Assembly (NCBI GenBank): GCA_964430875.1
Contig: CAYSHP010000007.1
Span: 1,736 to 65,735, forward strand
DNA from: an uncultured Halanaerobiales bacterium
Lineage (GTDB): Bacteria; Bacillota; Halanaerobiia; Halanaerobiales; M55B127
DNA: 64,000 nucleotides
Direction: 5' to 3'
Shown: piece after piece, positions 1 through 34,731 of the stretch
Position numbering within the stretch: the first letter of the stretch is position 1
How the letters are laid out: every line of letters starts with the position of its first letter
Program-made: the position numbers and the translations under genes
The notes under the pieces: model-generated
Databases searched by the model: none
Told to the model about the DNA's origin: nothing
Seen by the model: the letters and a program-made list of their open reading frames with translations, nothing else

Positions 1-1955
1 TTTGACCACTCTTTTTCAGTAAGTTTCACGGGCTTATTCAATATCTTTTCAGAGATAATAGTTTTCCCTACATCATGCAAAATAGCTAATAGAGATAACC
101 TATCAATTTCTGATTTAGGTAATTTAATTTTATTGCCTAACTTTTTGGCAAGAATACTTAACCTTTCAGCATGTTCCTTCGTCTCAGAACTTTTCTGTTG
201 TAGGGTAACTAAAAGTGTATTTATAATATGACTTTTAATACTCTTTTCTTCAAGTAATTTATCTTTGTACATCATGTCTTCCGCTTCTTTAAATAAAGTT
301 GAAATCTTTTTGCCTTCTTTCCTTTTTATAGAAAAACCTACTGCTAATGACAAAGGCATCTTATCATTATTTTTCACTGTTACTAATATATTTTGTTTTT
401 TAACTTCGGTTACTAACTTTTCAATATTATTTTGTTTAGAATTACTAACCAAGATTATAAATTCATCTCCACCCCATCTTGCTATGATATCTTTTTCATT
501 AAAGATATCTTTTAATATTTCAGCAGTTTTAATTAAAAATTGATCTCCCTTTTCATGACCATAGGCATCGTTAATTAATTTTAAACCATTTAAATCAATC
601 ATTACTAAACCGAGTGGAAATTCTTTTTTTGTATTGAGCCTTTCTAATTCTGACTCAAAAAATGTACGATTAAATGCATCAGTTAAATGATCCCGGTAAC
701 TCAGATGTCTAATTTCATTTTCCTTTTCTTTCTGTTCAGTAATGTCTTCATAAATACCATATACGCCAATGATTTCACCATCGTCCTTTACAGGAACTCC
801 CTTTATTAGGCAATGAATCTTCTTCCCATTTTTATCAAAGCGTATTCCCTCTTTTTTTATATTTTCTCCTCTTAAAACTTTAGCGGTAATATTTTCATTT
901 GCAGAATTACTCTTACTCATATTCATTACATTGTCCATATCTTTACCCTTGATTTCAGGTAAAGTATATTTAAACAACTTCTCAAAGGCTTTGTTAATAT
1001 CAATAACCTTATGATTTTTATCTAATATTGCAATAGCTTCAGTAGAGTTTTTATATAAAGCTTTGAGCCATAAATTTTCTCTTTTCAATTTTTGTTTATA
1101 TTCATATTTTTCACTAACATCACTAAAAACTAAGATAACACCCACTATATTGTTTTCTTGATCTTTAATTGGGGAAGCACTATCTGCTATTTGAATATTT
1201 TCGCCATTTTTTGAAATTAAAGTAGTGTCGTTGGCTAAACCAACAACTCTTTCCTCTTCTAATACCTTTTCTACAGGATTTTTTACTCTTACACCGGTAT
1301 GGGCATTTATAATATTAAATACTTTTTCCAAATCTTGTCCTTTTGCCTCATGGTATTTCCATCCGGTTAATCTTTCAGCTGTAGTGTTCATGCGAATGAT
1401 TTCTCCATCTGGATTAGTTGTAATCACTGCATCTCCAATGGCTTGTAAAGTTATGTCTAATCTTTTTTCTTGTTTTTGTAATATGAGGTTTTTATAAATC
1501 AAACTAAGGTGTAATTCTATTAAATCTCTAAAATTTCTTAAGATATCCTTTGCTTTTTGATTATAAGGATTTTCCTGTTTGTCTAGAACACATAAAGTAC
1601 CAAAAATATCTCCATCAGGCCATTTTATAGGATAACCAAGATAAGATATCATGCCCAATTCAATATCAGGGTTTTCTTTCCAGTCCTCATCTTTTAATGC
1701 ATTTTCAACTAATAAATAATCATCATCTAATATAACAGTCTCACAATATAATCCTGTTAATTCTTCACTATCCCCGACTTTGTAAGGATTATTTTCCGTA
1801 TCACTAGAGCGAAATACTTCTATCATAGGGGGATTTACTCGCATTATCAAAGCGGTAGGTACATCTAGCAGTTTTGTTAAATTATCAACAATTTCTTGCC
1901 ACCTATTGACAATTTCAGTTGGTATGGATAAATCTTTTACTGTTATTTTATTCAT
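1..1955 (-). CDS. Sensor protein GAF-like/PAS/PAS/GGDEF/HD-GYP (bifunctional c-di-GMP turnover), C-terminus cut by window edge
   Basis: Absent from the ORF track because it runs off position 1. The minus frame is open from ATG at 1955 (RBS GGGAGA upstream). Translation starts MNKITVKDLSIP. In-frame motifs are ARWGGDEFIILV (around 460-490) and LSLLAILHDVGKT (around 60-100). Confidence 0.85.
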   Translation of the reverse strand, partial: MNKITVKDLSIPTEIVNRWQEIVDNLTKLLDVPTALIMRVNPPMIEVFRSSDTENNPYKVGDSEELTGLYCETVILDDDYLLVENALKDEDWKENPDIELGMISYLGYPIKWPDGDIFGTLCVLDKQENPYNQKAKDILRNFRDLIELHLSLIYKNLILQKQEKRLDITLQAIGDAVITTNPDGEIIRMNTTAERLTGWKYHEAKGQDLEKVFNIINAHTGVRVKNPVEKVLEEERVVGLANDTTLISKNGENIQIADSASPIKDQENNIVGVILVFSDVSEKYEYKQKLKRENLWLKALYKNSTEAIAILDKNHKVIDINKAFEKLFKYTLPEIKGKDMDNVMNMSKSNSANENITAKVLRGENIKKEGIRFDKNGKKIHCLIKGVPVKDDGEIIGVYGIYEDITEQKEKENEIRHLSYRDHLTDAFNRTFFESELERLNTKKEFPLGLVMIDLNGLKLINDAYGHEKGDQFLIKTAEILKDIFNEKDIIARWGGDEFIILVSNSKQNNIEKLVTEVKKQNILVTVKNNDKMPLSLAVGFSIKRKEGKKISTLFKEAEDMMYKDKLLEEKSIKSHIINTLLVTLQQKSSETKEHAERLSILAKKLGNKIKLPKSEIDRLSLLAILHDVGKTIISEKILNKPVKLTEKEWS

Positions 1956-2145
1956 AGTTTTTTCTCCCTATTATAAATTAAAAATTATTCTGCTAATTTA
2001 TTTTTTAAATTTATATATTTTTACTTTAGTAATGCTTTGTAATCATATATATTTACTTTGAATATTTATATCTTAATTTGTACAACACTTTTTAAAGTCC
2101 TGCTAATATTAAAATATTTAATAAATAAAATATAATTCTCCTGTT

Positions 2146-2358
2146 CTAATCTTTATAACAAATTAACTTTCCCGGAATAAATATCCATATAAAAATATAG
2201 ATTAATATACCGGTTCCATTTATAAATGACAAAAATACAAATATTAATCGAATTAAAGTGACATTAATCTTTAACAAATTTGCAATCGCTATACAGATAC
2301 CTTTTAATATAGGTTTTTTATTAATTTCAATATCTTTTTCAATAATATAAATCACCAC
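2146..2358 (-). CDS. PspC-domain small membrane protein
   Basis: 70 aa. GICIAIANLLKINVTLIRLIFVFLSF..GILIYIFIWIFIP resembles the PspC domain core. It lies 21 nt downstream of the GGDEF gene. Confidence 0.65.
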   Translation of the reverse strand: MVIYIIEKDIEINKKPILKGICIAIANLLKINVTLIRLIFVFLSFINGTGILIYIFIWIFIPGKLICYKD

Positions 2359-2379
2359 TTTTTTATTGCAATTATTATT

Positions 2380-4443
2380 TTATAGTTTCTTATTATTTTT
2401 ATCTTTATACATATTTTTGTCCGCTATTCTTTTGGCTTCAAAGAGTTCCTCATAAGTTTTATTAATTACTTTGTATCCTAAAGAAATACTTAAATCTATT
2501 TTTAAATTGTTTTCTTCAGTGTATGTTCTACATTTATCTTTTATTCTATTACATATCAATTCCGTTTCCTTAGCATCTGTTTCAGGCAGCAAAATGCCAA
2601 ATTCATCTCCTCCAAGACGAGCTACTATATCTTCTTTTCTGGTAATACTTTGTAAAATTTCGGCAACAATTATTATATATTCATCCCCTTTTGCATGTCC
2701 TAAATTATCATTGATAGTTTTTAGACCATCAAGATCTCCAATGACAATAGATATTGGTAATCGTCTTGAATGGTTTAATCTCTCCATCTCTTTTTCAAAA
2801 TATGCTCTGTTGTATAGATCGGTCATTTGGTCATGATATGATAAATATCTCATGAAATCCTCTTCTTTTTTTCTGGTTGTTATATCTCTCATAAATACCA
2901 CATAATAAGGTTCTTCGAGTTCGAGATATAAAGCACTGACCTCGATGTCAATTATCTTACCATCTTTCTTTTTATGCTTTGTTTCAAATTTAGCATATTC
3001 TTCTTTCTGTATTTTTAGCATTCTCTTATCTATATCTTCTTTATCATCAATTATTTCTAACTCAGATATATGCATACCCATTAATTCTCTTTGGGTATAT
3101 CCTACCATATTTGCATAAGATTCATTAACATCTGTAATATAAGCATATTTATTAATCATCCAATAACCATCAGGTGTCTTTTCTAAGATTTTTTCTAGTC
3201 GTTCTTTTGATATCAGTGATTTTTTTAAGTCTTTTTGCATTTTATTAAATGAATCAGCTAATATACCTATTTCATCATTTCTTTTCATGTTTATTTTCTT
3301 ATCAAGGTTACCTTTGCCTAAAGAAGTTGCTATAGAAGCAAGTTCAATTAAAGGCTTAGCTAATTCTTTGCCAAATTTTATAGATAATAAGGATAAAAAT
3401 ATTACTATAATTATACCCGAATATATCAATACTCTTCTAATTTCATAAAAATCACCTAATTTTTCATCTAGATCTGCTGTTATTAATACCTTCCAAGTTT
3501 CATCTTTATTGCCTTTTTTTTGATCAATAGACACAGTGTTGCCCCCAAATTTAATTCTGTTATTACCGTTAGTTATATTTACATTAGCACTACTAAATAT
3601 CTTTTCTTCACCATCAACATTAACAATATAAGAGTTGTTATCATTATCTAATTTATTTAAAACTTTCTGATTAACTTCTGTAGATAAAGGCTCCTTGTCT
3701 TTTTCATAAACAATATATCCGCCGGATCTTACAATTTTTAAATTGCCCACCATATATGAATAACTATAGTTTTCTTCTAAATTAGATAAAAGCCCTTTTA
3801 TATTAACATTACACTTTAAAATGCCTATTATGATATCATCCTTTTTGATAGGAACAACTATTCCTAAAACATAACCTTCAACACTGCTATCATATCCCCT
3901 GTCATCTAGATATATTGTGCCGTAATTCTTATATGAACCCTGCCACCAATATTTATGAGAATGGGCAAGAGTTGTTAACTTACCAGTAGAAGCTACTAAA
4001 ACTCCATATTTATTGGTTAAAAATATTTCCCCAAAAAAATCAGAATCACTCTGATATAAATCACTAAAATAATTTGCCACTTTATTTTTAGTATATCTTT
4101 CTATAAAAGGATGATCATTTTTTTTTAAAAGCATCCATTTTTCATTCAATAAATTTATTATACTTTTTCTAGTTAATTCATTCATGTTTTGATAATTTGC
4201 ATTACTGGTTTCTAAGCTTTCTTTAATAATTGGTGATTTAGAAATAGTCTCAACTCTTGCAATTATTTCTTTTATTTCCTTATCTAGATTTAAAGAATAA
4301 TTGACCGCTAAATTTTTCATATCCTGTTTATTATTTTCGATATATACTTTCTTAAAATGAAAATTATGTATTAACAGCATTAACAAAATAGCTAGAAATC
4401 CCACAACTATAATCCTATAAGTTAACTTTTTCTTTAATTTCAT
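2380..4443 (-). CDS. Membrane sensor diguanylate cyclase (TM, Cache-like extracytoplasmic domain, TM, HAMP, PAS, GGDEF)
   Basis: 687 aa. N-terminal TM, about 300 aa extracytoplasmic region, second TM, HAMP (DEIGILADSFNKM) and PAS. GGDEF is intact (RLGGDEFGILL) with an RxxD I-site (RKED) 5 residues upstream. Confidence 0.9.
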   Translation of the reverse strand: MKLKKKLTYRIIVVGFLAILLMLLIHNFHFKKVYIENNKQDMKNLAVNYSLNLDKEIKEIIARVETISKSPIIKESLETSNANYQNMNELTRKSIINLLNEKWMLLKKNDHPFIERYTKNKVANYFSDLYQSDSDFFGEIFLTNKYGVLVASTGKLTTLAHSHKYWWQGSYKNYGTIYLDDRGYDSSVEGYVLGIVVPIKKDDIIIGILKCNVNIKGLLSNLEENYSYSYMVGNLKIVRSGGYIVYEKDKEPLSTEVNQKVLNKLDNDNNSYIVNVDGEEKIFSSANVNITNGNNRIKFGGNTVSIDQKKGNKDETWKVLITADLDEKLGDFYEIRRVLIYSGIIIVIFLSLLSIKFGKELAKPLIELASIATSLGKGNLDKKINMKRNDEIGILADSFNKMQKDLKKSLISKERLEKILEKTPDGYWMINKYAYITDVNESYANMVGYTQRELMGMHISELEIIDDKEDIDKRMLKIQKEEYAKFETKHKKKDGKIIDIEVSALYLELEEPYYVVFMRDITTRKKEEDFMRYLSYHDQMTDLYNRAYFEKEMERLNHSRRLPISIVIGDLDGLKTINDNLGHAKGDEYIIIVAEILQSITRKEDIVARLGGDEFGILLPETDAKETELICNRIKDKCRTYTEENNLKIDLSISLGYKVINKTYEELFEAKRIADKNMYKDKNNKKL

Positions 4444-4503
4444 AATATCGATCCCTCTATTTTACTTTTTGGTACTTAATCTATAAACTTAGTTATTATT
4501 GAT

Positions 4504-7014
4504 TTATCTTTTTTTAACAAAAGCAAAATCATAAACTGGTTCACCATAATTATCTTTAATTACTCTGACCTTTATATTTACATCTATATATTCTCCATTT
4601 TTCTTAATGTACTTTTTATTCAATTCAAAGTTATCTAGTTCTTTATTAGTTATCTTATCCATATACTCTTTATTTTTTTGATTGTCCTCTTTCTTTGTAA
4701 TATCAAAATGAGTCATTGTTTTTAACTCTTTTTCTGTATAGCCTAGTAATTCACAAAATTTATAATTAACTTCTATTATATTCCCCTTAAAATCAGAAAT
4801 TATAATTGCAATTGGCATTTCATTAAATACAATTCTTTTTTTATTTCTGACTATGCTTAATTTTCTTTTGAAATATTCTTTTTTATTTTGTTTTTTCATC
4901 TCATACATTTTCTCATCTGATATTTTAATTATTTCATTCAAATCCTGTTTATATGACTTTTTGATTGCAATACCGATCGATATGCTGAAATCAATATCTT
5001 TTATATCTATTTTTTTGATATTAATTGCTATTCTATTTTTTATTTTTTTAAGATTATCGTATTTTATTTCAGGCAAGATAATAGAAAATTCATCTCCGCC
5101 TATACGACATATAATGTCTGATTCTCTAACCACATTTCTTAAAACATCAGCTACTCTCTTAATATATTTATCACCTATACTATGACCATACATATCATTT
5201 ACTGATTTTAAATTGTCAATATCAGCAGTAATAACACCTATCGGTAATTTGCGTGATTTATTTATTCTCTTAACTGTATCTGCAAAATATGCCCGATTAT
5301 ATAAACCTGTTAATTGGTCCTGTATTGAAAGATACTTTATTTTATCTTTTTCTTTTTTCCTTTGAGTTATATTTCTTACAAATGCATAAAAGATAGGGCT
5401 AGCTTTTTCATTTATATATGTTTTATTAACCTCTACATCTATTACCTTTCCATTTTTCTTTTTATATTTAGTTTCAAAAAGTTCTTTCTTCTTTTCAATT
5501 ATTTTTTGTAAGCGTGCCTGTAAACCTTTTTTAGTTTCTTTAATATCAATATCTGAAATTTTCATATGCAATAATTCTTTTTCATTATAATCAACCATAT
5601 CTATAAAGGATTTATTAACTCTTATAAATTCACCCTTTTCATTAATTATAAAGAAACCATCTCCAGTTGTTTCAAGTATTTTATCAAGCTTATCTTTTTG
5701 TTCTTGCAATTTTTCATCTTTTATTCTTTTTTCTGTTATATTTTCATGTGCGATTACTGCACTGTATTCACCTTCTCCAACAAATGGAGTTATCCTCATT
5801 TTAAACCATCTTTTTTTATAAGGTGAATGACAAGGATATTCTATAGAAAAAGTGTCTGCCTTACCCTTAATAACTCGTTTTATACCGTCATAAACAATCC
5901 CTGCCTCTTTAGACCATTCACCTTCAGAATTTTTACATACTTCTAAATAATTTGTGCCTACTCCGCTTTCTTCTTCTTTTAAACCATTATTTACAGCAAA
6001 ATTTTCCCAAGCATTATTTACATATTTAATAAATCCTTTTCTATCTAGAACAGCTATATTTGCCGATAAGGAATTTATTAAGGATTGGCTTAATTCTTTT
6101 TCTTTTATTAAATTTTTCTCATATTTTTTCCTTTTAGAAATGTCCCTGGATACACTTAATACCATTTTCTTTTTATCTAAATTCACAATTTTTGAATTAA
6201 TCTCAACAGGTACTTTTTTGCCATTTTTAGTTTTATGAATAGTTTCAAAGATGTGTTCTTTTTTCTCTTCTAATTTTTTTATATTTTCTTTCCGCTTTTC
6301 TATAGTTTCTGATGTTATTACATCTAGTTCTTCGGGGCTAAGTTTTAAAAGTTCATCTTTAGTATATCCTAATTTTTTACAGGTAGCCTCATTAACATCA
6401 ATAAATGGTCCTAATTTATTTTCCTTGCTCTGAGGATAGTATTCATGGAAGAATATCGGGTCATTAATACTATCAAGAATCATTTGGGAATCATGCTTTA
6501 TTTGTTCATAGTCTTTTATTCTTTCATTTAAAATACTATTAAGGTATATATTTTCCAGCTTATATTCAATGATCGTTTTAAATTCTTTCATTAGATCTTT
6601 TTCTTCTTCTTTGAAATTTCTTTCTTTATTATCAAAGACACAAAAAGTCCCAAATGTTTTACCGTCAGGTTTTAAAATCGGTACTCCTAAATATGATTTC
6701 AAATTATATTTTTGGGACTGAGGAAACTCTAAATTATTTTTGTTTTTATAATTACTAATTTCTATTAATCTCTTTTCCTTTAATACTTTTTCACAATAAT
6801 GACCAGCCATTTTATATCTATCATTTTTTTTAAAGGGATTATTATTGGAGTTGTTTGTACTAATGATTACTAAATTATCATTATCGCGTTTTGTAATCAT
6901 AGCAATATTAACTTTTAAAAGGCTGACAATTAAATCTGCTATCTTTTGCCATTCTTCTTCCACTAATAATAGCAACTCATATTTATTTTTATTATTGGGT
7001 CTTCCACTAAACAT
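4504..7014 (-). CDS. Cytoplasmic multi-PAS diguanylate cyclase (GAF-like, PAS x3, GGDEF, C-terminal PAS)
   Basis: The ORF is 4504..7023. I prefer ATG at 7014 (GAGGTG RBS 6 nt upstream) over the GTG at 7023. Carries RIGGDEFSIIL with an RESD I-site. An extra PAS domain follows the GGDEF domain. Confidence 0.88.
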   Translation of the reverse strand: MFSGRPNNKNKYELLLLVEEEWQKIADLIVSLLKVNIAMITKRDNDNLVIISTNNSNNNPFKKNDRYKMAGHYCEKVLKEKRLIEISNYKNKNNLEFPQSQKYNLKSYLGVPILKPDGKTFGTFCVFDNKERNFKEEEKDLMKEFKTIIEYKLENIYLNSILNERIKDYEQIKHDSQMILDSINDPIFFHEYYPQSKENKLGPFIDVNEATCKKLGYTKDELLKLSPEELDVITSETIEKRKENIKKLEEKKEHIFETIHKTKNGKKVPVEINSKIVNLDKKKMVLSVSRDISKRKKYEKNLIKEKELSQSLINSLSANIAVLDRKGFIKYVNNAWENFAVNNGLKEEESGVGTNYLEVCKNSEGEWSKEAGIVYDGIKRVIKGKADTFSIEYPCHSPYKKRWFKMRITPFVGEGEYSAVIAHENITEKRIKDEKLQEQKDKLDKILETTGDGFFIINEKGEFIRVNKSFIDMVDYNEKELLHMKISDIDIKETKKGLQARLQKIIEKKKELFETKYKKKNGKVIDVEVNKTYINEKASPIFYAFVRNITQRKKEKDKIKYLSIQDQLTGLYNRAYFADTVKRINKSRKLPIGVITADIDNLKSVNDMYGHSIGDKYIKRVADVLRNVVRESDIICRIGGDEFSIILPEIKYDNLKKIKNRIAINIKKIDIKDIDFSISIGIAIKKSYKQDLNEIIKISDEKMYEMKKQNKKEYFKRKLSIVRNKKRIVFNEMPIAIIISDFKGNIIEVNYKFCELLGYTEKELKTMTHFDITKKEDNQKNKEYMDKITNKELDNFELNKKYIKKNGEYIDVNIKVRVIKDNYGEPVYDFAFVKKR

Positions 7015-7064
7015 AAAATACACCTCTTTAAACCATATTTCAATTTAATTTTTTCGGTTAAAAA

Positions 7065-9332
7065 TTAAAATATGTCTTTTAAACTAGAATTTATGAATCG
7101 TTCAACAATCTTTGGTGAAAATTGAGTTCCCTTATTAGAAATTAACTCTTCTAAAGCTTCCTTTTTACTTAGATTGTTCCTGTAAGGTCTTTCAGAAGTC
7201 ATGGCATCCCATGCATCTGCTACCGATAATATTTGCGAAATGATCGGTATTTGATCTCCTTTTATACCCTTTGGATAACCATTGCCATCCCATCTTTCAT
7301 GATGATATAAAATATATTCAGCTATTTCCCTTAATTCTATTGAATTCTTCAAAGTTTCATATCCCCAGACCGAATGTTTTTTAATAATAAAATATTCATT
7401 TTCCGATAATTTACCTTTTTTATTCAAAATATTTTTAGGTATTATCATTTTACCTATATCGTGTAAAAGTCCAGCCCAATAAGTCATCTCTATGATTTTT
7501 TGGGAAAGATCCATTTCTCTGGCAATTTCTCTCGAGATATTTGCTACTGTTTCATTATGCCCTTTTGTATAATCATCATGTATTTCGAGTAAATTTGTTA
7601 AAGAAATGATAACCTCATCTGTAAACTCTCTTTGCAATCTATTATAATTTTTTAATGTTAAATACGAAGAAGCCAATCTTTCTATAGAATATAAGGTCCT
7701 CTGGGCATTTTCTGTAAACTCTTCGCTACTATCTTTTTTTATTTCTATAGACATTCGACCAATTATGTTATCATTAACTAATATATTGACTAGTAAAGAA
7801 TTTTTTATTTTTTTTATATTATTTTGGTAATGATCATACAACTTAATAGGTGCTTTATCCTTATCAATAATATTGTTATCTTCAATTTCTTTTATATAAA
7901 ATTTATCATGATTTTTCATATGTATTCTCTTAATATCCAATTTATTTATATTATCAATATTATAACCTACAGCATCAATGAATTTAGCTTTACCATTTTC
8001 AAATAAGTAAATCAACCCATGGTCTGCTTCCGGGATTAATTCCATAGATTTTTTCAAAACTATCGATAAAAACTCTTCTTTATTAGTATCAGTTCCTATT
8101 TTTGAGATTAATTCAATGATATTTTCTAGGTTATAACTCAATATATCTAACTCTTTATAAGTTCTTTCTAAATCTTCATTCATAGCTCTTATTTCTTCAT
8201 TATTTGCCTCAAGCTCCATATATTTTTCTTGTAACTCATCGTTGGCTTCCATTATTTTCTTTTGTTTTTCTTTTCTATCAGAAATATCTCTACTAATAGC
8301 CAATAAATATTTTTTTCCGTTTTCTCTATAAGCATTCAATTTAGTTTCAACCGGTATGCTTTTTTTATTCTTATTAATATGAACTGATTCATAGCTGAAT
8401 TTATTTTCTTTAAATAGTTTTGTAAAAATTTTTTGATGAATTTCTTCAACTATTCTTTCAGGTACTATTTTAGAAGGACTAATTTCTTTAAATTCTTCTC
8501 TAGTATAGCCTAATACTTCACAAGCTTTATCGTTTACTTTTATAAATTTACTGTCTTCATATTTATCTTGAATTTCTAGTAAAAAAACTTCGTCATTAAT
8601 CTTGTTGAATAAAAACTCATATTCATTATTTTTTGACTTTAATTTACGCTTAAATTTACTTTCTCTTTTTTTAAATTCCTGTATGTTTTTAAGCCATGTT
8701 TTAATTTTATACTCAACAATTCTATTGTTTTTAAACCCATCAGGCTCAATATAATAAGGATTTTCATACAGATTGTCCTTCCAAATTATATAATGATGTA
8801 ATTCAAGAATTGATTTAATAATTTCATTATCAAACTTATTCAAATTATATCTACATAAAGCAATTACAGGATAATTATCAAAAATTTCATCATTCAACAA
8901 CCACTCATATTTAATTAGTTCTTCTTTCCCTCTTTTATAGTTTAAGACCCAACTTAGTTCTCCTGTAATACTAAGCCCAGTATAACCATCTTCAATAGCT
9001 TGGGAAGATAAATTTTTCAAAAGTGTTATCATCTTATCTGCTTCAAATTGATCACTTAAAGCATAAGTTTCTTCTTTAGATAAAAATTGTAATTGTCTGG
9101 TTTTTATTAACTGACTAAAATCATCTCGTTCTTTTTGCAGTTCACTATTTATTAACTTTGTATTTGCATCCCCTTGTATATATAAACATATTTCTCCCCG
9201 TTTTAAACTGTTTTTTATAAAAGAAACAACTGGATTTAATGTTTCCTTTTCTTCCTCGTATAATAATACTGAATGGTCGCCCGGTTCTAATTTATCCATG
9301 TTCTCCATTTTTCCAAAATGAACATTCTGCAC
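7065..9332 (-). CDS. MEDS-PAS-GAF-HD-GYP c-di-GMP phosphodiesterase
   Basis: 755 aa. GTG start with an AGGGGG RBS. The N-terminus GDHSVLLYEEE..GEICLYI..LSITGELSW..ALCRYN matches the MEDS pattern. The HD-GYP core is intact (LLHDIGK, HHERWDGNGYP). Confidence 0.88.
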   Translation of the reverse strand: MQNVHFGKMENMDKLEPGDHSVLLYEEEKETLNPVVSFIKNSLKRGEICLYIQGDANTKLINSELQKERDDFSQLIKTRQLQFLSKEETYALSDQFEADKMITLLKNLSSQAIEDGYTGLSITGELSWVLNYKRGKEELIKYEWLLNDEIFDNYPVIALCRYNLNKFDNEIIKSILELHHYIIWKDNLYENPYYIEPDGFKNNRIVEYKIKTWLKNIQEFKKRESKFKRKLKSKNNEYEFLFNKINDEVFLLEIQDKYEDSKFIKVNDKACEVLGYTREEFKEISPSKIVPERIVEEIHQKIFTKLFKENKFSYESVHINKNKKSIPVETKLNAYRENGKKYLLAISRDISDRKEKQKKIMEANDELQEKYMELEANNEEIRAMNEDLERTYKELDILSYNLENIIELISKIGTDTNKEEFLSIVLKKSMELIPEADHGLIYLFENGKAKFIDAVGYNIDNINKLDIKRIHMKNHDKFYIKEIEDNNIIDKDKAPIKLYDHYQNNIKKIKNSLLVNILVNDNIIGRMSIEIKKDSSEEFTENAQRTLYSIERLASSYLTLKNYNRLQREFTDEVIISLTNLLEIHDDYTKGHNETVANISREIAREMDLSQKIIEMTYWAGLLHDIGKMIIPKNILNKKGKLSENEYFIIKKHSVWGYETLKNSIELREIAEYILYHHERWDGNGYPKGIKGDQIPIISQILSVADAWDAMTSERPYRNNLSKKEALEELISNKGTQFSPKIVERFINSSLKDIF

Positions 9333-9614
9333 GATGCACCCCCTATACTTTTACCTATAATTTCTTAATACATTTTTCACAATTTTTAACTTTATCAAGT
9401 GCATCATATACCCTTTCTTATAATTCATTAATAATTTCCTTTTTATTTAACTTTACAGCTTAAAGCTACAGTTATCATCAATATTTCGACTATATTTATA
9501 GTAGTATATTTTCTATAACTATATTTTCAGATTTGTATTAAAGAATAAGTAAGACTTCACTTGTTTCTTTTTATTATATTTTGTAAAATTTACTCATAAG
9601 AATAATATATAGGT

Positions 9615-10073
9615 TTAGTGTAAGTTTTTAATTTCTTTAAGTTCTTTATTCTTTAAAACATTACTGGATTCAATAATTATAATTAATTCATCATTTAAAT
9701 TTGCAATCCCGTTAATATAATTAGCATCGATTTTTTTGGTTATTTCAGGGGCATCATTAATGTCTTTTTGATTTAAACCATTTATTCCAATAACTTCTTC
9801 CACCATAAGACCAACCAATTCATTATCGACAGATATGATAATTATTTTATTGTTATCTATATTAATATTTAAATTAAACTTCTTATCTAAATTAATGATA
9901 GGAATTATCTGTTCCCGCAAATTGATAACTCCCTCCACATAAGAAGGTGCTTCCGGGATAAAAGTTAGTTCCTCAGTCGTAATTATCTCCCGGCTGTCCA
10001 TCACATCAATACCATATTTTTGTCTTCCTAGTGCAAAAATTACATGCTGTCTATTTAGATCTTTTTCAGGCAT
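9615..10073 (-). CDS. cheW: Chemotaxis coupling protein CheW
   Basis: 152 aa with a CheW-like fold (FALGRQKYGIDV..REII). The ATG overlaps the upstream cheW stop. RBS GAGGAGG. Confidence 0.9.
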   Translation of the reverse strand: MPEKDLNRQHVIFALGRQKYGIDVMDSREIITTEELTFIPEAPSYVEGVINLREQIIPIINLDKKFNLNINIDNNKIIIISVDNELVGLMVEEVIGINGLNQKDINDAPEITKKIDANYINGIANLNDELIIIIESSNVLKNKELKEIKNLH

Positions 10074-10572
10074 TTTTTACCTCCTCTGATGGATTATTGT
10101 TATCAAAAAGTATATCTTCTATATTAATAATTACAATCAATTTCCCTTTAGAAGTGAATACACCCTTAATATATTCTTCTTCTAAACTCTGCTTTCCATC
10201 AGTAGTTTTCTCAATATCATCAGAATTAATTGAAAGAACTTCTCTGACATCATCTATATATAATCCTACCATTATTCCATCAATATTTATTATGATTATC
10301 TTATTATTGTCCTTTTTTTTATGATTTTTCACTAATCCTAATTTTTCTTTTAAATCAATTACCGGTGTAACTTTACCTCTGATATTTATAACACCCATTA
10401 CATGTTTAGGTGTATTGGGTACATTTGTTATCTTAGGCGGTTTTATTATCTCTTTCGCTTTTTCTAACTGCAGTCCATAATATTCTTGTTCCAATTTGAA
10501 AGTAAGATACTGGTTTAAACTACCTATATTTGTTTCTTTTTTATCAAGATAAATATCATCTTTTTCTGACAT
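10066..10572 (-). CDS. cheW: Chemotaxis coupling protein CheW (second copy)
   Basis: 168 aa. YLTFKLEQEYYGLQLEKAKEII..GVINIRGKV is typical of CheW. Confidence 0.9.
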   Translation of the reverse strand: MSEKDDIYLDKKETNIGSLNQYLTFKLEQEYYGLQLEKAKEIIKPPKITNVPNTPKHVMGVINIRGKVTPVIDLKEKLGLVKNHKKKDNNKIIIINIDGIMVGLYIDDVREVLSINSDDIEKTTDGKQSLEEEYIKGVFTSKGKLIVIINIEDILFDNNNPSEEVKNA

Positions 10573-10585
10573 TAGAAATCCCCCT

Positions 10586-12580
10586 TTAGGCTATATCACG
10601 AACATCTAATATTAAAGCTACTTCGCCATCCCCAATTATTGTAGCTCCACTTATATTTTTTACATTACCCAGATAATCACTAAGTGATTTAATTACTATC
10701 TCTTGTTGATATAGTAATTCATTAACTATCAATCCCACTTCTTTACCACTAGATTTAACTATTACAACGGACATCTCTTCCTGCTCAGTATAATTATTAT
10801 CTCCCACTTCAATATTTAAACTCTTACGGCTGTCTATAAGGGGTATAGTTTCATTTCTTAAAACTATCACATCATTACCCTTTACCTGTCTGATTTCCTT
10901 AGATTTAATTTTTAAGGTTTCACTTATCGCATTAAGCGGTATTGCAAATACTTCCTCATCTATTTTTACCATAAGGGCATCTTGAATAGCTAATGTTAGA
11001 GGAAGTGATATAACAATCTTAGTACCCTCTTCCTTTTCAGATTTTATGTAAACATCTCCATCTAAGCTTTTTATAGTTCTTTTAACAACATCCATTCCTA
11101 CTCCACGACCAGAAACATTTGAGACCTGGTCAGTAGTGCTTAAGCCCGGTTCAAAGATAAGCTGTAATTTTTTCTCTCTGTCCATTTCTTCAAGTTCTTT
11201 TTGGGTGATCAATTCTTTTTCAACAGCTTTAGCTGTCAATTTATCTATATTAATCCCTGAACCATCATCTTCTACTTCTATAATTATTTCGCTGCCTTTT
11301 TGATAAGCCTTTAACTTTATTTTCCCAGTTTTATCCTTACCCTTTTTAACTCGAGTTTCTGGTTTTTCAATACCGTGATCAACAGCATTTCTCAGTAAAT
11401 GGGTTAAGGGATCTCCCAGTTCATCTATAATAGAACGGTCTAGCTCTGTTTCTTTACCTTTGATTAAAAAATCAATTTCTTTTTGGCTGTCCTTTGATAG
11501 ATCGCGAACCATGCGGGGAAAACGATTAAACATAACTCCGATCGGTTCCATTCTGATCTGCATTACTGTATGATGCAGTTCCATGGTTACCCTATCAAGT
11601 TGAGGCAGTATATCTTTAAATCCTTCCGAATTTATGTTCAGTGCCTCTAAGCGGGTTTTATTAATAAGTAATTCACCAATCATATTCATTAACTTATCTA
11701 ATTTCTTGATTCCCACCCTCACTGTAGAAGATACTGCAAACTTAGAAGAACTACTGTCTTCATTTTTTGCTTTTTGTTTTTCATTATCTGATTTCATATT
11801 CTTATCTGTTGATTCAATATCCATAGCAGTAATATTTATTGCTACTACATCTGTAATATTACTAAGATTATTAACTATATCTTCTCTATTTTCATTTGAA
11901 ATTAATATCATTTTAACTACATCTTCTTCTATTTCTGCTTCATCTACACTTTTTATATCTGGATCTGATTTAAAGATATAGCCCATTTCTTTGGCTTCTT
12001 TCAAAACCATAGAAGCCCTAACTTGTTTAAACTCAGTAACTTTATCTAATTCAGCATTAACAGCATAAACTGTATCTAGCTCTTTTTTGTTTTCTTGAAT
12101 ATTATTTTTTTCAACCTCATTTAAAGTTAGCCTTTTTGAATCAAAGTTATCATTATTATTCTCTATATCTTGATTAGAAGTTTCTTTATGTGCTTTTCCC
12201 TCTTCTATATTATTTTCCAGTTTATGCAAATATACTTCTAAATTAAAATCATCTGTACCCTCATCTTTAATCTGCTTTACTATTTCTTCTATGTAATCTA
12301 TTCCTTCAAATAAAAGGTCTATAATTTCTGTAGTCACATCTATTTTATTATTTCTAACCTTATCCATTAAATTTTCAATTTTATGTGTTAACTCTGTCAA
12401 TACATCAAATCTCATAGTTGCTGACATGCCCTTTAAAGAATGGGCTGCTCTAAATAATGAAGCAACTACTTCTTTATCTTCGGGGTTGTTTTCTAATTTC
12501 AAGATATTATCATTTAATACCATGATGTATTCTTCTGATTCTGCGAAGAACATATCTAAATATTCATTATTATCACTCAA
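10586..12580 (-). CDS. cheA: Chemotaxis histidine kinase CheA
   Basis: 664 aa. Hpt motif AAHSLKGMSATM, HATPase motifs (DDGSGI, GRGVGMDVV) and a C-terminal CheW-like domain. TTG start with a GAGGAGG RBS. Confidence 0.95.
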   Translation of the reverse strand: MSDNNEYLDMFFAESEEYIMVLNDNILKLENNPEDKEVVASLFRAAHSLKGMSATMRFDVLTELTHKIENLMDKVRNNKIDVTTEIIDLLFEGIDYIEEIVKQIKDEGTDDFNLEVYLHKLENNIEEGKAHKETSNQDIENNNDNFDSKRLTLNEVEKNNIQENKKELDTVYAVNAELDKVTEFKQVRASMVLKEAKEMGYIFKSDPDIKSVDEAEIEEDVVKMILISNENREDIVNNLSNITDVVAINITAMDIESTDKNMKSDNEKQKAKNEDSSSSKFAVSSTVRVGIKKLDKLMNMIGELLINKTRLEALNINSEGFKDILPQLDRVTMELHHTVMQIRMEPIGVMFNRFPRMVRDLSKDSQKEIDFLIKGKETELDRSIIDELGDPLTHLLRNAVDHGIEKPETRVKKGKDKTGKIKLKAYQKGSEIIIEVEDDGSGINIDKLTAKAVEKELITQKELEEMDREKKLQLIFEPGLSTTDQVSNVSGRGVGMDVVKRTIKSLDGDVYIKSEKEEGTKIVISLPLTLAIQDALMVKIDEEVFAIPLNAISETLKIKSKEIRQVKGNDVIVLRNETIPLIDSRKSLNIEVGDNNYTEQEEMSVVIVKSSGKEVGLIVNELLYQQEIVIKSLSDYLGNVKNISGATIIGDGEVALILDVRDIA

Positions 12581-12623
12581 TTTCTTTCCTCCTCTATCAT
12601 TATGAACATATCACTTTAACGGC

Positions 12624-12980
12624 TTATATTATTTTATCAATTGCCTCTTTAATTCTCTTTTTGTTAAAAGGTTTCACAATAAAATCTTTAGCCCCAGCTT
12701 CAATTGCTTCTATTACAAGTGATTGTTGACCCATTGCAGAACACATTATTACTTTGGCATCAGAATCAAATTCCATTATTTTTTTTACTGCCTCGATTCC
12801 ATCCATTTCCGGCATGGTTATATCCATTGTTACTAAGTCCGCTCCATGTTTTTGATATGATTCAAAACCTATTTTCCCATTGGCTGCTTCATCTACAATC
12901 TCATGCCCATTATTTTCTAATATGTTTTTTAAATTCATTCGCATAAAAGCTGCATCATCTACTATTAATATTTTTGCCAC
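12624..12980 (-). CDS. cheY: Chemotaxis response regulator CheY
   Basis: 118 aa single REC domain (ILIVDDAAFMR, LVTMDITMPEMDG, KPF). Confidence 0.95.
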   Translation of the reverse strand: MAKILIVDDAAFMRMNLKNILENNGHEIVDEAANGKIGFESYQKHGADLVTMDITMPEMDGIEAVKKIMEFDSDAKVIMCSAMGQQSLVIEAIEAGAKDFIVKPFNKKRIKEAIDKII

Positions 12981-13003
12981 TTTTCATCCGCTCCTTATCA
13001 TTT

Positions 13004-13031
13004 AAAAGAAGAGGCTCTAAGAGCCCCTTCT
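13004..13031 (-). other. Intercistronic stem-loop between mcp and cheY (possible attenuator or mRNA stabiliser)
   Basis: Minus strand AAGAAGGGGCUC-UUA-GAGCCUCUUCUU forms a 12 bp stem with one G-U pair. The following U tract is weak. Confidence 0.4.
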
Positions 13032-13039
13032 TGGTCAAC

Positions 13040-15112
13040 TTATATTTCAAATTGCTCAACTTTACTAGAAAGCTTTTGTGCCATCTCTGAAAGATTTTCT
13101 GATGCTTTAACAATTTCTTCGGTTGAGGCACTTTGTTCTTCACTGGAAGCAGCTACTTCTTCTGCATTACTAGATGCCTGTTCACTAACTGAGGCAACTT
13201 CATCTACAGCTTTTTCTACTTGTGAACTCTTCGCAGCCATATCTTCTGCTGCCTCTGTGATATCTTTAATAAGGCTTCTTAGACTAACTGCTGCAGAATC
13301 AATCTCACCAAAGGAATTCTCAGTTGTTTTAATTGCATCTACGCCATCTTCAACTGCCTCTTCTGCTTTATTCATTTGTTTTATAGTATCTTGAACACCA
13401 TCTTGTATTTCATTGATCAAAGAAGCAATGTTTTCTGTTGCATCAGAAGATTCTTCAGCAAGTTCTCTAATCTCATCTGCAACCACACTAAATCCTCTGC
13501 CAGCTTCTCCTGCTCTAGCTGCCTCTATTGCAGCATTTAAAGCAAGTAGATTGGTCTGGGCCGAAATACCATTAATCAGTTCTACAATATCACCAATTTG
13601 TTCTGATAATTTGCCCAAGTCATCTATCCTATTTGATACAGCCTGTGATTGATTTTTAACTTCTCTGACTTGGTCGATTGAATTATTTATTGAGGTATTA
13701 CCTTCTTTAATATTATCCATAACATTACCAGCTTTTTCATCCATTTCTCCAGACTTTTCTCCCACATTATCAATTCTACCGGCTAAATCTTCAACATTCC
13801 CTTTTGTTTCTTCAATCTGAGCAGTCTGCTCTTCAGCCCCGGAAGCAACTTCTTGAATAGCAGTTCCTACCTGTTCAGCGGAGGCTGAAATCTCTTCACT
13901 GGAAGCTGAAAGCTCTTCACTAGAAGAAGAAAGGTCACTAGCGATTTCTGCCACATCTTCAATTACACCTCGTAAATTATCCTGCATTTTATTTAATGCA
14001 TTTGCTAAAGTCCCTATTTCATCCTCTGAATTAACATCAATTTTTTTAGCTCTCAAATTACCTTGAGCAATCTCTTTAGCAAACTCTACTCCGAGATTAA
14101 CAGGTTTAGTAATACTTCTAGTTATTATAAATGCGATAAGGGCTCCAATTATTAAAGCAACAATTAAAGCTATAATTAAATTTCTAATTGCCGCTGTTTG
14201 CCCCTCTTCCATTTCGGCAAGTTGTAAGTCCTGTAATTCATTTGCACTAGCCAAAAATTCATCAGCTTTAGTTTCCATAGTTGCTTTATTTTGATCTTTG
14301 GTTAGTTCTATTTCATGAATTTGTTGGAATACATTTTCTGTATTATTCAATTGATTTAATATACCCTCTGCTGTTTTAATATCTTTTTCCTCATTAAAGG
14401 AATTTTTAAGTTCCGTTGCTGTTTCTTTAGCAGTTTGGAAAGCAGCTAAAGTACTGTTTGCATATCTTTCCTGCCCTTCTGCATCAGCAAGGTTAATTAT
14501 GTAATTTCTCTCCTGTCTTCCTATATTATCAACATTTTGAACCAACTGATTAGCAAGTAATAAAGTTTGAAGTTTTTGTTCGATATCCCTTATTTCTACA
14601 TTTCCCATTCCACTATTCATATCAGCTATTAGTTCGTCATATTCTTCCTTTTGGGCTTTTTCTAAACTCTCTATTTGACTTTTTAGTTCTTCTTCTACAG
14701 CCACAAATTCAGTTCTAAGTTCATTTTGCTGAAAAAGAGAGTCCGCATAAGAAATAGCGGCTGTTTTATATTGATTAGCAAGAGACTGCATGTTATCAAT
14801 CCTTTTTTTATCAGCCTCTTCTTGCATTAGTTCTTTGGTTTTATCACCGCTTGCCACCATAGAACTTACCATCTGGTCTATATTATCAATATATATTTGT
14901 TCTTCTTGTAACATGAAATTTTTCTCATTTTGTCTAATTTCCAATGTCGTTTCAGCAAAACCAGCTGCATCATTAGAAATCTGAACGTCATGATCGACAT
15001 TATTTAAACCCTGATAACCCACTAATGCCATAATACCAGCTATCAAAATTAAAATTGCAAATCCTCCACCAATTTTAAACCCTAAATTTAAATTCTTAAA
15101 AAATTTTAACAA
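13040..15112 (-). CDS. Methyl-accepting chemotaxis protein (4HB-type sensor, HAMP, MA domain)
   Basis: 690 aa with two TM segments, HAMP and the conserved signalling tip ([33 protein letters not shown]). TTG start with a GGAGGAG RBS. Confidence 0.95.
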
Positions 15113-15410
15113 TATTACTCCTCCTTTTAATTATTAGATCATTTATTATTTATCCCAATTTAATTAATTGGGTTTACAACCAATATATTTATATGTTTTG
15201 AAAATTGTGAAATTGAAAACAATTATTAATATTTGTAATATTTATTTCGTAATATATATTAGATCTATTAAATGTGCTGAATGGCTTTTTAGACAATTAT
15301 TCTCCTCTATGATAGTTATAGCTCTTAAATACTTCATTTAAGTATAAATATTAATTAATTTATATATTTATTATTTTCCTGATTATGTTGATAATATTAC
15401 TTAAGTTTGT

Positions 15411-15527
15411 AAATAAAAAAATATGGCCCTTCTTTTTGGCCATAGTATCTATGGTAACCTGGCAGTCTATTTAAAATAGACCCATAGCTTTGCGTCCTTT
15501 TCTTACGAAAAGTTTGCCTTTTTCATC
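15411..15527 (-). promoter_or_regulatory. c-di-GMP-I (GEMM-I) riboswitch aptamer plus intrinsic terminator expression platform
   Basis: The minus-strand RNA carries GGCAAAC-hairpin(GUAA)-GGACGCAAAGCUAUGGGUC...GACUGCCAGGUUACCAUAG. This is followed by UAUGGCC-N9-GGCCAUA and U7. It matches the class I c-di-GMP aptamer core as I remember it (Vc2). Confidence 0.85.
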
Positions 15528-15788
15528 ATATTATTTGATTTTATTATTTTTTATATGGTATTATAATAACATCTATTATAATAAATAACTTATTTTTCCC
15601 TATAAACTTCCTAACTCTTAAAAATTCTTTCATATTATATCACTTTATCTATATTTATTTTATAACAAATATTATAAAATTTCAGTAAAAAATTATAAAA
15701 ATATGTTCTTTATAGTAACTTTTTGTAAAATATTATCAATTTTTAGTGGTTTTGTGTATAATGATATACAATCTGGGGGTTTTTACTT

Positions 15789-16943
15789 TTGGAATATTTT
15801 TCTTCAAGATTAAAGTTATTAAGGAAAGAAAATAATCTTACTCAAAATAAACTCGCAAATATTTTAGGTTATTCAAGATCAACAATAGCTAAATATGAAG
15901 CAGGTCAGATGATCCCCTCGGGCAGTTTTTTATATGATGTTGCAGAATATTTCGAAGTTTCATTAGACTATCTATTAGGCCGAACTAATATCCATGAAAG
16001 TTTTGGTGACTATATTTTATCAAAAGCACCTAGTATATTATTATTTGTAGACCCTAAAGATGGAAAAATAATAGACCACAGTCCCTCTGCTCTCGATTTT
16101 TACGGATATAAAAGACATGAACTTCTTAAAAAAACCATATATGAACTAAATACCCTACCAAAAGATGAAGTTAAAAAATTAATGAAAAAAGCTATTGAAG
16201 CAAAACATAAAACATATTTTTTTAAACATAAACTGTCTAATGATAAAATAAAAGAAGTAAAAGTAACAACTACAAAAGTTACCATCAATAATAGAAAGGT
16301 AATTGGTTCTTTAATTCAAGACCTTAGTATTAGTAATAATAAGAAAGAAGATAATAAACTATCTAAAAATTTATTTCAATCAATTAATAATATAGCTTTA
16401 CAAAATATTCATCATAAAGACCAACATATTTATAATGTCACTAAACTTGCTGCTGATATTGGTAAACATCTCTTTTTATCCACAAAAGATCTAGAAAATC
16501 TAACATTTGCTAGTCAGCTTCAAAATATTGGAGAAGTTAATATACCCCACCATATTATTAATAAGCCAAACATATTAAATGAAAATGAATATTCAATAAT
16601 AAAAAGCCATCCTGTTTTTAGTCTGCAATTACTTAAAAATACTTCTATTAATAAAAAAATAAAAAAAATTATATTACAACATCATGAAAGATTAGATGGT
16701 TCTGGATACCCGAATAATTTAACGAAAAATGAAATTTTAATAGAAGCACAAATTATCGGAGTAGCTGATGTAATAATTGCTATGATATCTAAAAGGCCTT
16801 ACAGAAAATCATTTGATTTAGAAGATGCTTTAAAAGAAATTAATAAAAATAAAGGTATAAAATATAATAAAGAAATAGTAAATATTTGTAATCATATCTT
16901 AAAAAATACTAAATATAAACCTGAATTTAAAGCCAACTATTAA
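15789..16943 (+). CDS. XRE-family HTH / PAS / degenerate HD-GYP protein (candidate c-di-GMP-binding regulator)
   Basis: 384 aa. TTG start with a GGGGG RBS. XRE HTH (LTQNKLANILGYSRSTIAKYEAG) and PAS. The HD-GYP domain has QLQNIGE in place of LHDIGK but retains HHERLDGSGYP. Confidence 0.85.
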   Translation: MEYFSSRLKLLRKENNLTQNKLANILGYSRSTIAKYEAGQMIPSGSFLYDVAEYFEVSLDYLLGRTNIHESFGDYILSKAPSILLFVDPKDGKIIDHSPSALDFYGYKRHELLKKTIYELNTLPKDEVKKLMKKAIEAKHKTYFFKHKLSNDKIKEVKVTTTKVTINNRKVIGSLIQDLSISNNKKEDNKLSKNLFQSINNIALQNIHHKDQHIYNVTKLAADIGKHLFLSTKDLENLTFASQLQNIGEVNIPHHIINKPNILNENEYSIIKSHPVFSLQLLKNTSINKKIKKIILQHHERLDGSGYPNNLTKNEILIEAQIIGVADVIIAMISKRPYRKSFDLEDALKEINKNKGIKYNKEIVNICNHILKNTKYKPEFKANY

Positions 16944-33052: not shown

Positions 33053-33391
33053 TTAATTACTGTTGTCCTCTGCTTTATAGGTTAATATTTCTACTTTTTC
33101 TACTGTTACTAATCCTTCTTTTACCATCTCTTGTACAGTAGGTATTATATTGTCTATCTTTTCTGACTTATCAACCACCTCAATCATAATAGGAAGATCT
33201 TCAGATAGTTGCCAGATATGAGAATTTTTAATTCTACTGTTTAAACCAAACCCTTCTATTCCGGAAATTGCAGTTGCTCCAGCTAATCCCATTTCTTTAA
33301 ATTTTTTTATCAATGCTCTGTAGAGTGGTTCACCTTCCAACATATCATTTTCGCCAATATATATTTTTAACACTTTACCTTCTCCAACCAT
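33053..33391 (-). CDS. DUF190 (PII-like fold) protein
   Basis: The ORF is 33053..33433. The start is moved to ATG at 33391 (RBS AAGGATGGTGA), which removes the overlap with the antiporter. KIYIGENDMLEGEPLY..GLAGATAISGIEGFG is typical of DUF190. Confidence 0.8.
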   Translation of the reverse strand: MVGEGKVLKIYIGENDMLEGEPLYRALIKKFKEMGLAGATAISGIEGFGLNSRIKNSHIWQLSEDLPIMIEVVDKSEKIDNIIPTVQEMVKEGLVTVEKVEILTYKAEDNSN

Positions 33392-33407
33392 TTTATCACC
33401 ATCCTTT

Positions 33408-34618: not shown

Positions 34619-34710
34619 TAAAAAAATAAGCTCCTATTCAGCCCAATTGTTCTGAATAGGAGCCATCAATTGCAAAATATGCAATAATTAAGGTGAGCTC
34701 CATCACCTAC
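34619..34710 (-). promoter_or_regulatory. Fluoride riboswitch (crcB motif) with terminator expression platform
   Basis: The minus-strand RNA reads AGGUGAUGGAGCUCACCUUAAUUAUUGCAUAUUUUGCAAUUGAUGGCUCCUA. This is followed by the hairpin GCUCCUAUUCAG-N10-CUGAAUAGGAGC and U7. It closely parallels the remembered B. cereus crcB riboswitch (AGGCGAUGGAGUUCGCCAUAAACGCUGCUUAGCUAAUGACUCCUAC plus terminator). Confidence 0.85.
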
Positions 34711-34731
34711 TATATTTTTAATTATATATTA

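Follow-up and report, generated by a model that had tools for sequence, protein, structure and literature searches.

A c-di-GMP riboswitch in front of a chemoreceptor gene, and its che and c-di-GMP enzyme gene neighbours, in an uncultured Halanaerobiales bacterium

We analysed a 64,000-nucleotide (nt) stretch of DNA from an uncultured Halanaerobiales bacterium (GenBank assembly GCA_964430875.1, contig CAYSHP010000007.1, positions 1,736 to 65,735 of the forward strand), referred to below as the window. Its first 17 kb combine genes for enzymes of cyclic di-GMP (c-di-GMP, a second messenger), a set of chemotaxis (che) genes headed by mcp, which encodes a methyl-accepting chemotaxis protein (MCP), and a c-di-GMP riboswitch. 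The explanation that we favour, and to which we give about an even chance of being right, is that mcp is the main gene under riboswitch control, that the che genes receive attenuated read-through, and that the enzyme genes are functional neighbours mostly expressed on their own. The direct and evolutionarily conserved target of the riboswitch would thus be the chemoreceptor gene. An earlier, sequence-only reading of this DNA had proposed a single riboswitch-gated transcript of about 13 kb, reaching the PspC gene or beyond, through which c-di-GMP would feed back on its own enzymes; we consider such a transcript doubtful, and the proposed feedback wiring is unproven and has been weakened by the results below.

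The riboswitch and leader of mcp

Rfam covariance models identified a single riboswitch in the cluster, a c-di-GMP class I aptamer with mcp as the first gene downstream. Its best model is the c-di-GMP-I-GGC variant RF03167, for which it scores 71.3 bits, above the gathering threshold of 59 (E about 1e-15 to 7e-15), an overlapping lower-scoring match from the same clan (the GEMM-I family, CL00126) having been removed by clan competition. The score bears out the riboswitch called in the sequence-only reading, and a permissive Rfam search of the gaps yielded no second RNA element. The elements on which the argument turns are as follows.

15449-15527, minus strand: c-di-GMP class I riboswitch aptamer (Rfam covariance model, best match RF03167)
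15414-15454, minus strand: expression platform, comprising the 3′ strand of P1, a switching segment, and a terminator with U7
15154-15172: palindrome CCCAAT-N7-ATTGGG, shortly before the ribosome-binding site of mcp
13003-13032, minus strand (scan hit at 13027-13011): terminator-like hairpin GGGGCUC-UUA-GAGCCUC followed by UUCUUUUA, between mcp and cheY

It is highly improbable, in our estimate, that the RNA is a true GGC-variant aptamer of altered ligand specificity that does not report c-di-GMP, even though RF03167 outscores the canonical model both in the window and in the orthologous aptamer of a related locus, L024. According to their consensus lines, RF03167 and RF01051 differ at a sole pocket column, the base after GACGC (G in the former, A in the latter), and this base is A in the window, in L024 and in a third orthologous aptamer, that of L019 (GACGCAAAG, not GACGCGAAG); the G that defines RF03167 at the position equivalent to A47 is present in none of the three. 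The pocket equivalents in the window aptamer are G10 (for G20), A37 (for A47) and the C of UUACC (for C92), and equivalents of G20 and C92 also occur in the L024 and L019 aptamers. A37 stands 27 nt after G10, the unpaired G of AAGGC, and 27 nt is also the spacing between G20 and A47 in Vc2 and between G11 and A38 in Bc1 (PMC11218506, PMC4744006). The orthologous L019 copy is, moreover, assigned to RF01051, and the better RF03167 score is accounted for by the second helix (P3), a short plain hairpin without a recognisable receptor for the GUAA (GNRA) loop of the aptamer. We read the window aptamer as a canonical c-di-GMP aptamer despite its best model, because the equivalents of A47, G20 and C92 are present in all three loci; the family name GGC is taken here to stand for positions 20, 47 and 92, on the strength of two Rfam consensus lines and the numbering used in other papers. 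An alignment of the aptamers, which holds only three distinct sequences, contains three pairs with compensatory changes and few broken pairs.

In the expression platform the P1 3′ strand (CCAUAG, 15454-15449) is followed by the switching segment (CUAUGG, 15445-15440) and by the terminator UAUGGCC-N9-GGCCAUA (15444-15422) with its U7, a three-segment layout that is also found in L024 and L019. The terminator (-9.8 kcal/mol) and the antiterminator CCAUAG/CUAUGG (-5.6 kcal/mol) are mutually exclusive, so a ligand-locked P1 should favour termination, and we infer a terminator-type transcriptional OFF switch. At high c-di-GMP the ligand would lock P1, CUAUGGCC would be freed to pair with GGCCAUA, and transcription would stop at U7 before mcp; at low c-di-GMP the P1 3′ strand would pair with CUAUGG instead and the polymerase would continue.

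The palindrome precedes the start of mcp by about 40 nt. It occurs once in the window, where 0.06 copies are expected by chance, and has been kept in L024 (639-657) while the remaining leader has diverged. Preceding it is a promoter-like sequence, TTCACA-18-TATATT, at 15211-15182. The palindrome might serve as an operator or form a 5′ stem-loop, through which mcp would bypass riboswitch control or add to it. A 33-codon open reading frame (ORF) in the same leader (about 15195-15296, minus strand, with a GAGGAG ribosome-binding site) was dropped as a candidate; it is probably a chance occurrence, because it is not conserved in L024.

Transcription beyond mcp

Terminators were sought with a hairpin-plus-U-tract scan of the window. 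The scan recovers the evident intergenic terminators (dG -9 to -22), for example those after genes ending near 61.1, 38.5, 29.9, 22.7, 21.1, 17.7 and 17.1 kb. It also recovers the terminator-like hairpin at 13003-13032, which comes after the stop codon of mcp and before the ribosome-binding site of cheY, and so inside the proposed 13-kb transcript; the sequence-only reading had missed this hairpin. Its dG of -9.4 is close to that of the riboswitch terminator and within the range of the evident intergenic terminators; its stem can be extended to 12 bp, and its U-tract is interrupted (UUCUUUUA). The stem bases have changed with pairing kept in both L024 (AGGGGCUU/AAGCCCCU followed by U5) and L014 (AGGGGCUC/GAGUCCCU followed by U6). 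Strong hairpins also stand downstream of mcp in L019, L021 and L034, and most related loci show one. We suggest that this hairpin and its U-tract would end or attenuate most transcripts after mcp.

The cheY-cheA-cheW-cheW genes probably depend on read-through past the hairpin, because cheY starts only 31 nt beyond it (about 25 nt in L024) and a scan of the last 400 nt of mcp found no promoter-like site; with too little space for their own promoter, they would receive a reduced, riboswitch-dependent share of transcription. These same observations, together with the broken U-tract, argue against a stricter partition in which the hairpin is an efficient terminator, the riboswitch controls mcp only, and the che and enzyme genes are served by unrecognised promoters. 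Such a partition would fit the conservation of the hairpin, its strength relative to the riboswitch terminator, the fact that related mcp genes generally end in terminators, and the good promoter-like site (TTTACA-17-TATTAT) that follows the hairpin in L014, in front of cheA. We regard it as unlikely. The genes of the region are listed in order of position.

1-1955, minus strand: GAF-PAS-PAS-GGDEF-HD-GYP hybrid, C-terminus cut by the start of the window (translated frame)
2146-2358, minus strand: PspC, a small membrane protein (PF04024 in the called genes of L001)
2380-4443, minus strand: dCache-HAMP-PAS-GGDEF protein (Pfam; GGDEF motif, I-site RKED)
4504-7023, minus strand: GAF-PAS x3-GGDEF-PAS protein (Pfam; GGDEF motif, I-site RESD)
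7065-9332, minus strand: MEDS-PAS-HD-GYP protein (Pfam; HD, HHE and GYP all intact)
9615-10073, minus strand: cheW (Pfam)
10066-10572, minus strand: cheW (Pfam), overlapping the preceding entry by 8 nt
10586-12580, minus strand: cheA (Pfam), full length P1-P5 (Hpt, P2, dimerisation, HATPase and CheW-like domains)
12624-12980, minus strand: cheY (Pfam), single-domain response regulator
13040-15112, minus strand: mcp (Pfam), with helical sensor, HAMP and MCP signalling domain
15789-16943, plus strand: HTH(XRE)-PAS-HD-GYP protein (Pfam), divergent from the riboswitch-mcp unit

Pfam searches, translation and motif inspection agree with the gene content given in the sequence-only reading: three GGDEF proteins, one of them a GGDEF/HD-GYP hybrid, one intact HD-GYP protein (the MEDS protein, with all metal-site motifs), one degenerate HD-GYP regulator, in which HD is replaced by QN (the HTH-PAS-HD-GYP protein), and an mcp-cheY-cheA-cheW-cheW set. 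The GGDEF motif is found in all three GGDEF proteins and the RxxD I-site in two of them. The hybrid has an intact GGDEF motif and a lost I-site (NEKD), and its HD motif is seen while the GYP portion lies beyond the window. The product of 4504-7023 is a predicted diguanylate cyclase with I-site, and that of 2380-4443 a predicted membrane diguanylate cyclase with I-site. All features of an MCP-CheW-CheA-CheY pathway are present, namely the signalling domain, CheW, a five-domain CheA with its phospho-accepting histidine (H47, within AAHSLKG), and a CheY with its phospho-accepting aspartate (D8, D9, D53 and K103 are kept). According to Pfam, none of the five c-di-GMP proteins of the window carries a receiver (REC) domain. 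When GGDEF, HD-GYP, MCP, CheW, REC and PAS domains were used as tblastn queries, every match fell within 1-17 kb, the other 47 kb being free of matches, so the dense clustering described earlier is indeed confined to the first 17 kb. Queries with CheB, CheR, FlgN, FlgK, FlgL and FliW matched only the REC domain of cheY in the 64-kb window, as expected from the earlier statement that the che set lacks cheB, cheR and flagellar genes; nor did the adaptation enzymes CheR and CheB (or CheC, CheD, CheV) have a match there.

The intergenic distances along the minus strand are uneven.

mcp to cheY: 59 nt
cheY to cheA: 43 nt
cheA to cheW: 13 nt
cheW to cheW: -8 nt (overlap)
cheW to MEDS-HD-GYP: 281 nt (non-coding gap 9333-9614, without terminator or Rfam element)
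MEDS-HD-GYP to GAF-GGDEF: 41 nt
GAF-GGDEF to dCache-GGDEF: 60 nt
dCache-GGDEF to PspC: 21 nt
PspC to hybrid: 190 nt

The gaps of 281 nt and 190 nt look like borders of transcription units, and we propose that the enzyme genes would be transcribed mostly from start sites of their own within these gaps, with riboswitch read-through contributing a minor share at most. Comparison of the 9333-9614 gap with locus L022 revealed homology only in the first 55 nt or so and the last 15 nt or so, leaving about 215 nt in the middle unmatched; in L022 and L014 a GGDEF gene that is missing from the window occupies the position between cheW and the MEDS gene. Promoter-like matches within the gap are uninformative in such AT-rich DNA.

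Gene order in relatives

Six contigs with an identical cheW proved to be more than 99% identical to the window and are therefore useless for conservation analysis, and the MEDS-HD-GYP protein, searched for by exact match from the GTG start, was not found. The nearest CheAs in species-representative genomes, about 70% identical, belong to flagellar clusters of the order mcp-cheA-cheW-cheW-cheY-cheB-cheR...flgN-flgK-flgL-fliW, which contain cheB and cheR and have neither a riboswitch nor c-di-GMP enzyme genes downstream; the window cheY is likewise 71-73% identical to the CheY of relatives' flagellar che clusters. These clusters were accordingly rejected as orthologues of the module and treated as paralogous. 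Their CheWs are only about 48% identical to those of the window, compared with 78% and 69% for the pair in L014, identities that mark the window che set as a distinct paralogous module. True orthologous loci have CheWs of 69-96% identity. Their cheA genes are 74-95% identical to that of the window, and mcp is 86% identical in L024, with a signalling domain 77-79% identical in L014 and L016. Orthologues of the cyclase genes were found directly after MEDS-HD-GYP in L014 (GAF-GGDEF, 51% identity) and downstream of the che genes in L024 (dCache-GGDEF, 80% identity). Four arrangements are informative.

L024: riboswitch-mcp-hairpin-cheY-cheA-cheW-cheW, then 1.3 kb of decayed DNA and the dCache-GGDEF orthologue; without the MEDS and GAF genes
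L022: cheA-cheW-cheW-(75 nt)-dCache-PAS-GGDEF-(34 nt)-MEDS-HD-GYP
L014/L015/L025: mcp-hairpin-cheA-cheW-cheW-GGDEF-MEDS-HD-GYP-GAF-GGDEF, with spacers of 9-55 nt; without cheY and without riboswitch
L019: RF01051 riboswitch-mcp-hairpin-CheA-like (P3-P5 only)-cheW, with MEDS-HD-GYP and REC-PAS-GGDEF on the opposite strand

At each of the three loci with a riboswitch (the window, L024 and L019), the gene that follows it is mcp, and a search of the 2.1 kb without genes that precede mcp in L014 found no riboswitch. The comparison indicates that across relatives the riboswitch goes with mcp, and the che genes with the enzyme genes, and that the three do not appear to be inherited as a unit. In L019 the MEDS-HD-GYP gene, being on the opposite strand, could not be gated by the riboswitch at all. 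Three features point to gene turnover in L024, the nearest of the relatives with a riboswitch, in which the end of an ISL3-type transposase (1-160) lies just upstream of the riboswitch, the cheY frame (2826-3181) is broken in homopolymer runs, either as a pseudogene or through assembly error, and the decayed DNA after cheW (6190-7490) is gene-free. The CheA-like proteins of 376-377 amino acids encoded in L019 (5831-6964, minus strand) and L021 (5765-6895, plus strand) comprise dimerisation, ATPase and CheW-like domains without Hpt or P2, have mcp, cheW and MEDS-HD-GYP as neighbours, and may be kinase-dead or phosphotransfer-incompetent parts of receptor arrays.

These arrangements bear directly on the 13-kb transcript. 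Its expression platform looks workable, and our scan agrees with the sequence-only reading that no terminator separates cheW from the PspC gene, no terminator-like hairpin being found in 9333-9614, 7024-7064, 4444-4503 or 2359-2379. Long riboswitch-controlled units also have a precedent in the 29-gene operon under a class I riboswitch (PMC11477304), and genes for c-di-GMP production and degradation are among those associated with GEMM elements (PMC7266159). The che and enzyme genes are, in addition, packed at 9-75 nt in L014 and L022, so that part of the synteny comparison turned out in its favour. The other part did not, as the riboswitch is not linked to the enzyme genes: MEDS is missing from L024, which carries the riboswitch, the riboswitch is missing from L014, which carries MEDS, and in L019 the MEDS gene is divergent. 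Within the window the transcript would have to pass the conserved hairpin after mcp and cross the 281-nt and 190-nt gaps, and it would encode opposing activities, a phosphodiesterase along with cyclases, which leaves the sign of the feedback undefined. Feedback through co-transcription is possible, but not as a conserved design.

Several observations weigh against the explanation that we prefer, that of a riboswitch acting mainly on mcp. The riboswitch terminator is thermodynamically preferred over the antiterminator even without ligand, so the switch could be largely locked OFF, as has been reported of Bc1 (PMC11218506). The promoter-like site and palindrome at 15211-15154 are downstream of the terminator, and mcp may escape the riboswitch through them. 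Instead of terminating transcription, the hairpin after mcp could stabilise the mRNA or cause a weak pause, and since the scan found no terminator-like element outside ORFs on the minus strand from 13011 to position 1, polymerase that passes the hairpin could reach the enzyme genes. A scan for sigma-70-type promoters returned 125 sites where 113 were expected from shuffled sequence in this DNA of about 30% GC; with a yield so close to chance, the promoters that we assume in the gaps are hypothetical, and promoter-like sites are named as candidates without being weighed for or against any reading. Finally, the tight packing in L014 and L022 suggests that the che and enzyme genes were once one operon.

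The MEDS-PAS-HD-GYP protein of the window carries GHNE, LHDIGK, HHERWDGNGYP and ADAWD, a complete metal-site set, and is a predicted active c-di-GMP phosphodiesterase. Its MEDS domain (residues 1-230; 8643-9332, minus strand) has a predicted RecA/KaiC/FlaH-like fold (pLDDT 86) without a Walker A motif, and for that reason resembles a KaiC-like pseudo-ATPase; searching the PDB with the domain sequence gave no match, leaving the fold comparison alone as informative. In L034 and L035, genes for KaiC-type ATPases (PF06745) stand on the flanks of the MEDS-HD-GYP homologue. In eight of ten distinct loci (the window, L014, L016, L019, L020, L021, L022 and L034, but not L017 or L035), MEDS-HD-GYP homologues, of 38-76% identity, have mcp or che genes at most a few genes away, and a GGDEF gene is next downstream in at least six of the ten, probably seven. 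Over these ten loci the adjacency amounts to a strong impression of enrichment and is not a statistic.

In the HTH-PAS-HD-GYP protein, LQNIGE takes the place of the LHDIGE seen in about 25 of 31 aligned relatives, which makes the protein degenerate and a probable non-catalytic regulator. It adjoins MCP or che genes in all three loci concerned (the window, L032 at 7001-8149 and L033 at 5633-6781). HTH(XRE)-PAS-HD-GYP proteins form a Halanaerobiales family of about 30 clusters, most of whose members keep HD but have a first metal-site motif without its acidic residue; in a few, the window copy included, HD has been lost to QN, KN or EN, and P0054 has QD.

The island might also have arisen by chance, abundant signalling paralogues having piled up at a hot spot of rearrangement, and the che genes and c-di-GMP enzymes would then be functionally unlinked. 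MCP, PAS-GGDEF and HD-GYP genes are indeed numerous in Halanaerobiales, insertion sequence (IS) elements and gene turnover surround L014, L017 and L024, and the composition downstream of cheW is different in every relative. The recurrence of MEDS-HD-GYP beside mcp or che genes, of a GGDEF gene usually next after it, and of HTH-PAS-HD-GYP beside MCP or che genes makes this decidedly unlikely.

Known systems and other observations

The closest precedent for riboswitch control of a chemoreceptor gene is Bc1 of the Bacillus cereus group, a class I c-di-GMP riboswitch that lies upstream of MCP genes and is reported to be largely locked OFF (PMC11218506). Like the window element, it has equivalents of G20, A47 and C92 and precedes an MCP gene in a Firmicute, and it represses by means of a terminator, as the window element would. 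The leader from aptamer to start codon is about 220 nt in Bc1 and about 335 nt in the window, which differs further in its GUAA loop, its short P3 without a recognisable receptor and its single terminator. The window also belongs to another lineage, the Halanaerobiales, and its mcp heads a che module amid c-di-GMP enzyme genes.

In Clostridioides difficile, Cd1 is a class I OFF riboswitch of the 29-gene flgB operon (PMC11477304) and demonstrates that a very long operon can be under the control of one riboswitch. As we propose for the window, it is a transcriptional OFF switch that lowers motility-related expression at high c-di-GMP; unlike in the window, the target is the flagellar operon itself, without chemoreceptor or c-di-GMP enzyme genes. 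We know of no internal terminator-like hairpin after the first gene of the flgB operon.

A link between chemotaxis machinery and c-di-GMP turnover has been established by experiment in Pseudomonas aeruginosa, where the phosphodiesterase Pch (DipA) is coupled to CheA (PMC3861689). Pch offers a precedent for local control at receptor arrays, and like the window system it ties a c-di-GMP phosphodiesterase to the chemotaxis machinery. It is, however, an EAL enzyme encoded outside the che cluster and without a riboswitch, whereas the window enzyme is of the HD-GYP type and its link is one of gene neighbourhood.

Wsp-type chemosensory pathways have a response-regulator diguanylate cyclase as output. 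They resemble the window in the genetic linkage of a che-like module to c-di-GMP synthesis and differ in that the window has no receiver domain on its GGDEF and HD-GYP proteins, and no cheB or cheR. REC-PAS-GGDEF neighbours do occur in L019 and probably in L020. The identity of about 70% between the window CheA and CheY and their flagellar-cluster counterparts suggests a recent duplicate of the motility pathway and not a Wsp/ACF-class system.

Control of chemoreceptor and motility genes by c-di-GMP riboswitches is already known, as is cross-talk between chemotaxis machinery and c-di-GMP enzymes. Since GEMM elements upstream of c-di-GMP enzyme genes are also known (PMC7266159), transcriptional feedback would be a modest addition. 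Riboswitch control of the receptor is of an ordinary kind; the more interesting lead is the neighbourhood of receptor or che genes, HD-GYP and GGDEF genes. What is new here is a lineage-wide association in Halanaerobiales of chemoreceptor and che genes with MEDS-HD-GYP and HTH-PAS-HD-GYP, together with a riboswitch on the receptor gene in some species. The order consists of uncultured or poorly studied halophilic anaerobes.

Tentatively, and as an idea much more likely to fail than to hold, the association could reflect a conserved and so far undescribed receptor-linked c-di-GMP module of Halanaerobiales, in which the receptor array would control local c-di-GMP turnover and c-di-GMP, acting through the riboswitch, would shut off the receptor, closing the loop. 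Such a module may be made up of the chemoreceptor (often with CheW and either a full or a P3-P5-only CheA), the MEDS-PAS-HD-GYP protein with its KaiC-like pseudo-ATPase domain, and a PAS-GGDEF protein, and the divergent HTH-PAS-HD(QN)-GYP regulator may possibly add to the shut-off of the receptor. If the proteins are physically coupled, the receptor array with its phosphodiesterase and cyclases would form an equivalent of the Pch-CheA link that is Gram-positive and built on HD-GYP, and the MEDS domain, which is poorly understood, would gain a role that can be tested.

Some minor observations were made along the way. In L016, from a Halanaerobiales metagenome-assembled genome, MEDS-HD-GYP is followed by GGDEF, DUF6272, SiaC, HAMP-SpoIIE and receiver protein genes (1234-8290), an order reminiscent of the Pseudomonas SiaABCD module. 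At the edge of the L021 contig (12382-12478, plus strand), near the che/HD-GYP cluster of a Halanaerobium species, a group II intron begins, its 5′ end scoring 67.3 bits for RF02001. Elsewhere in the window, a fluoride riboswitch (RF01734, 41.9 bits) at 34650-34716 on the minus strand, with a very strong terminator hairpin (34664-34629), stands upstream of the minus-strand ORFs 33408-34601 and 33053-33433.

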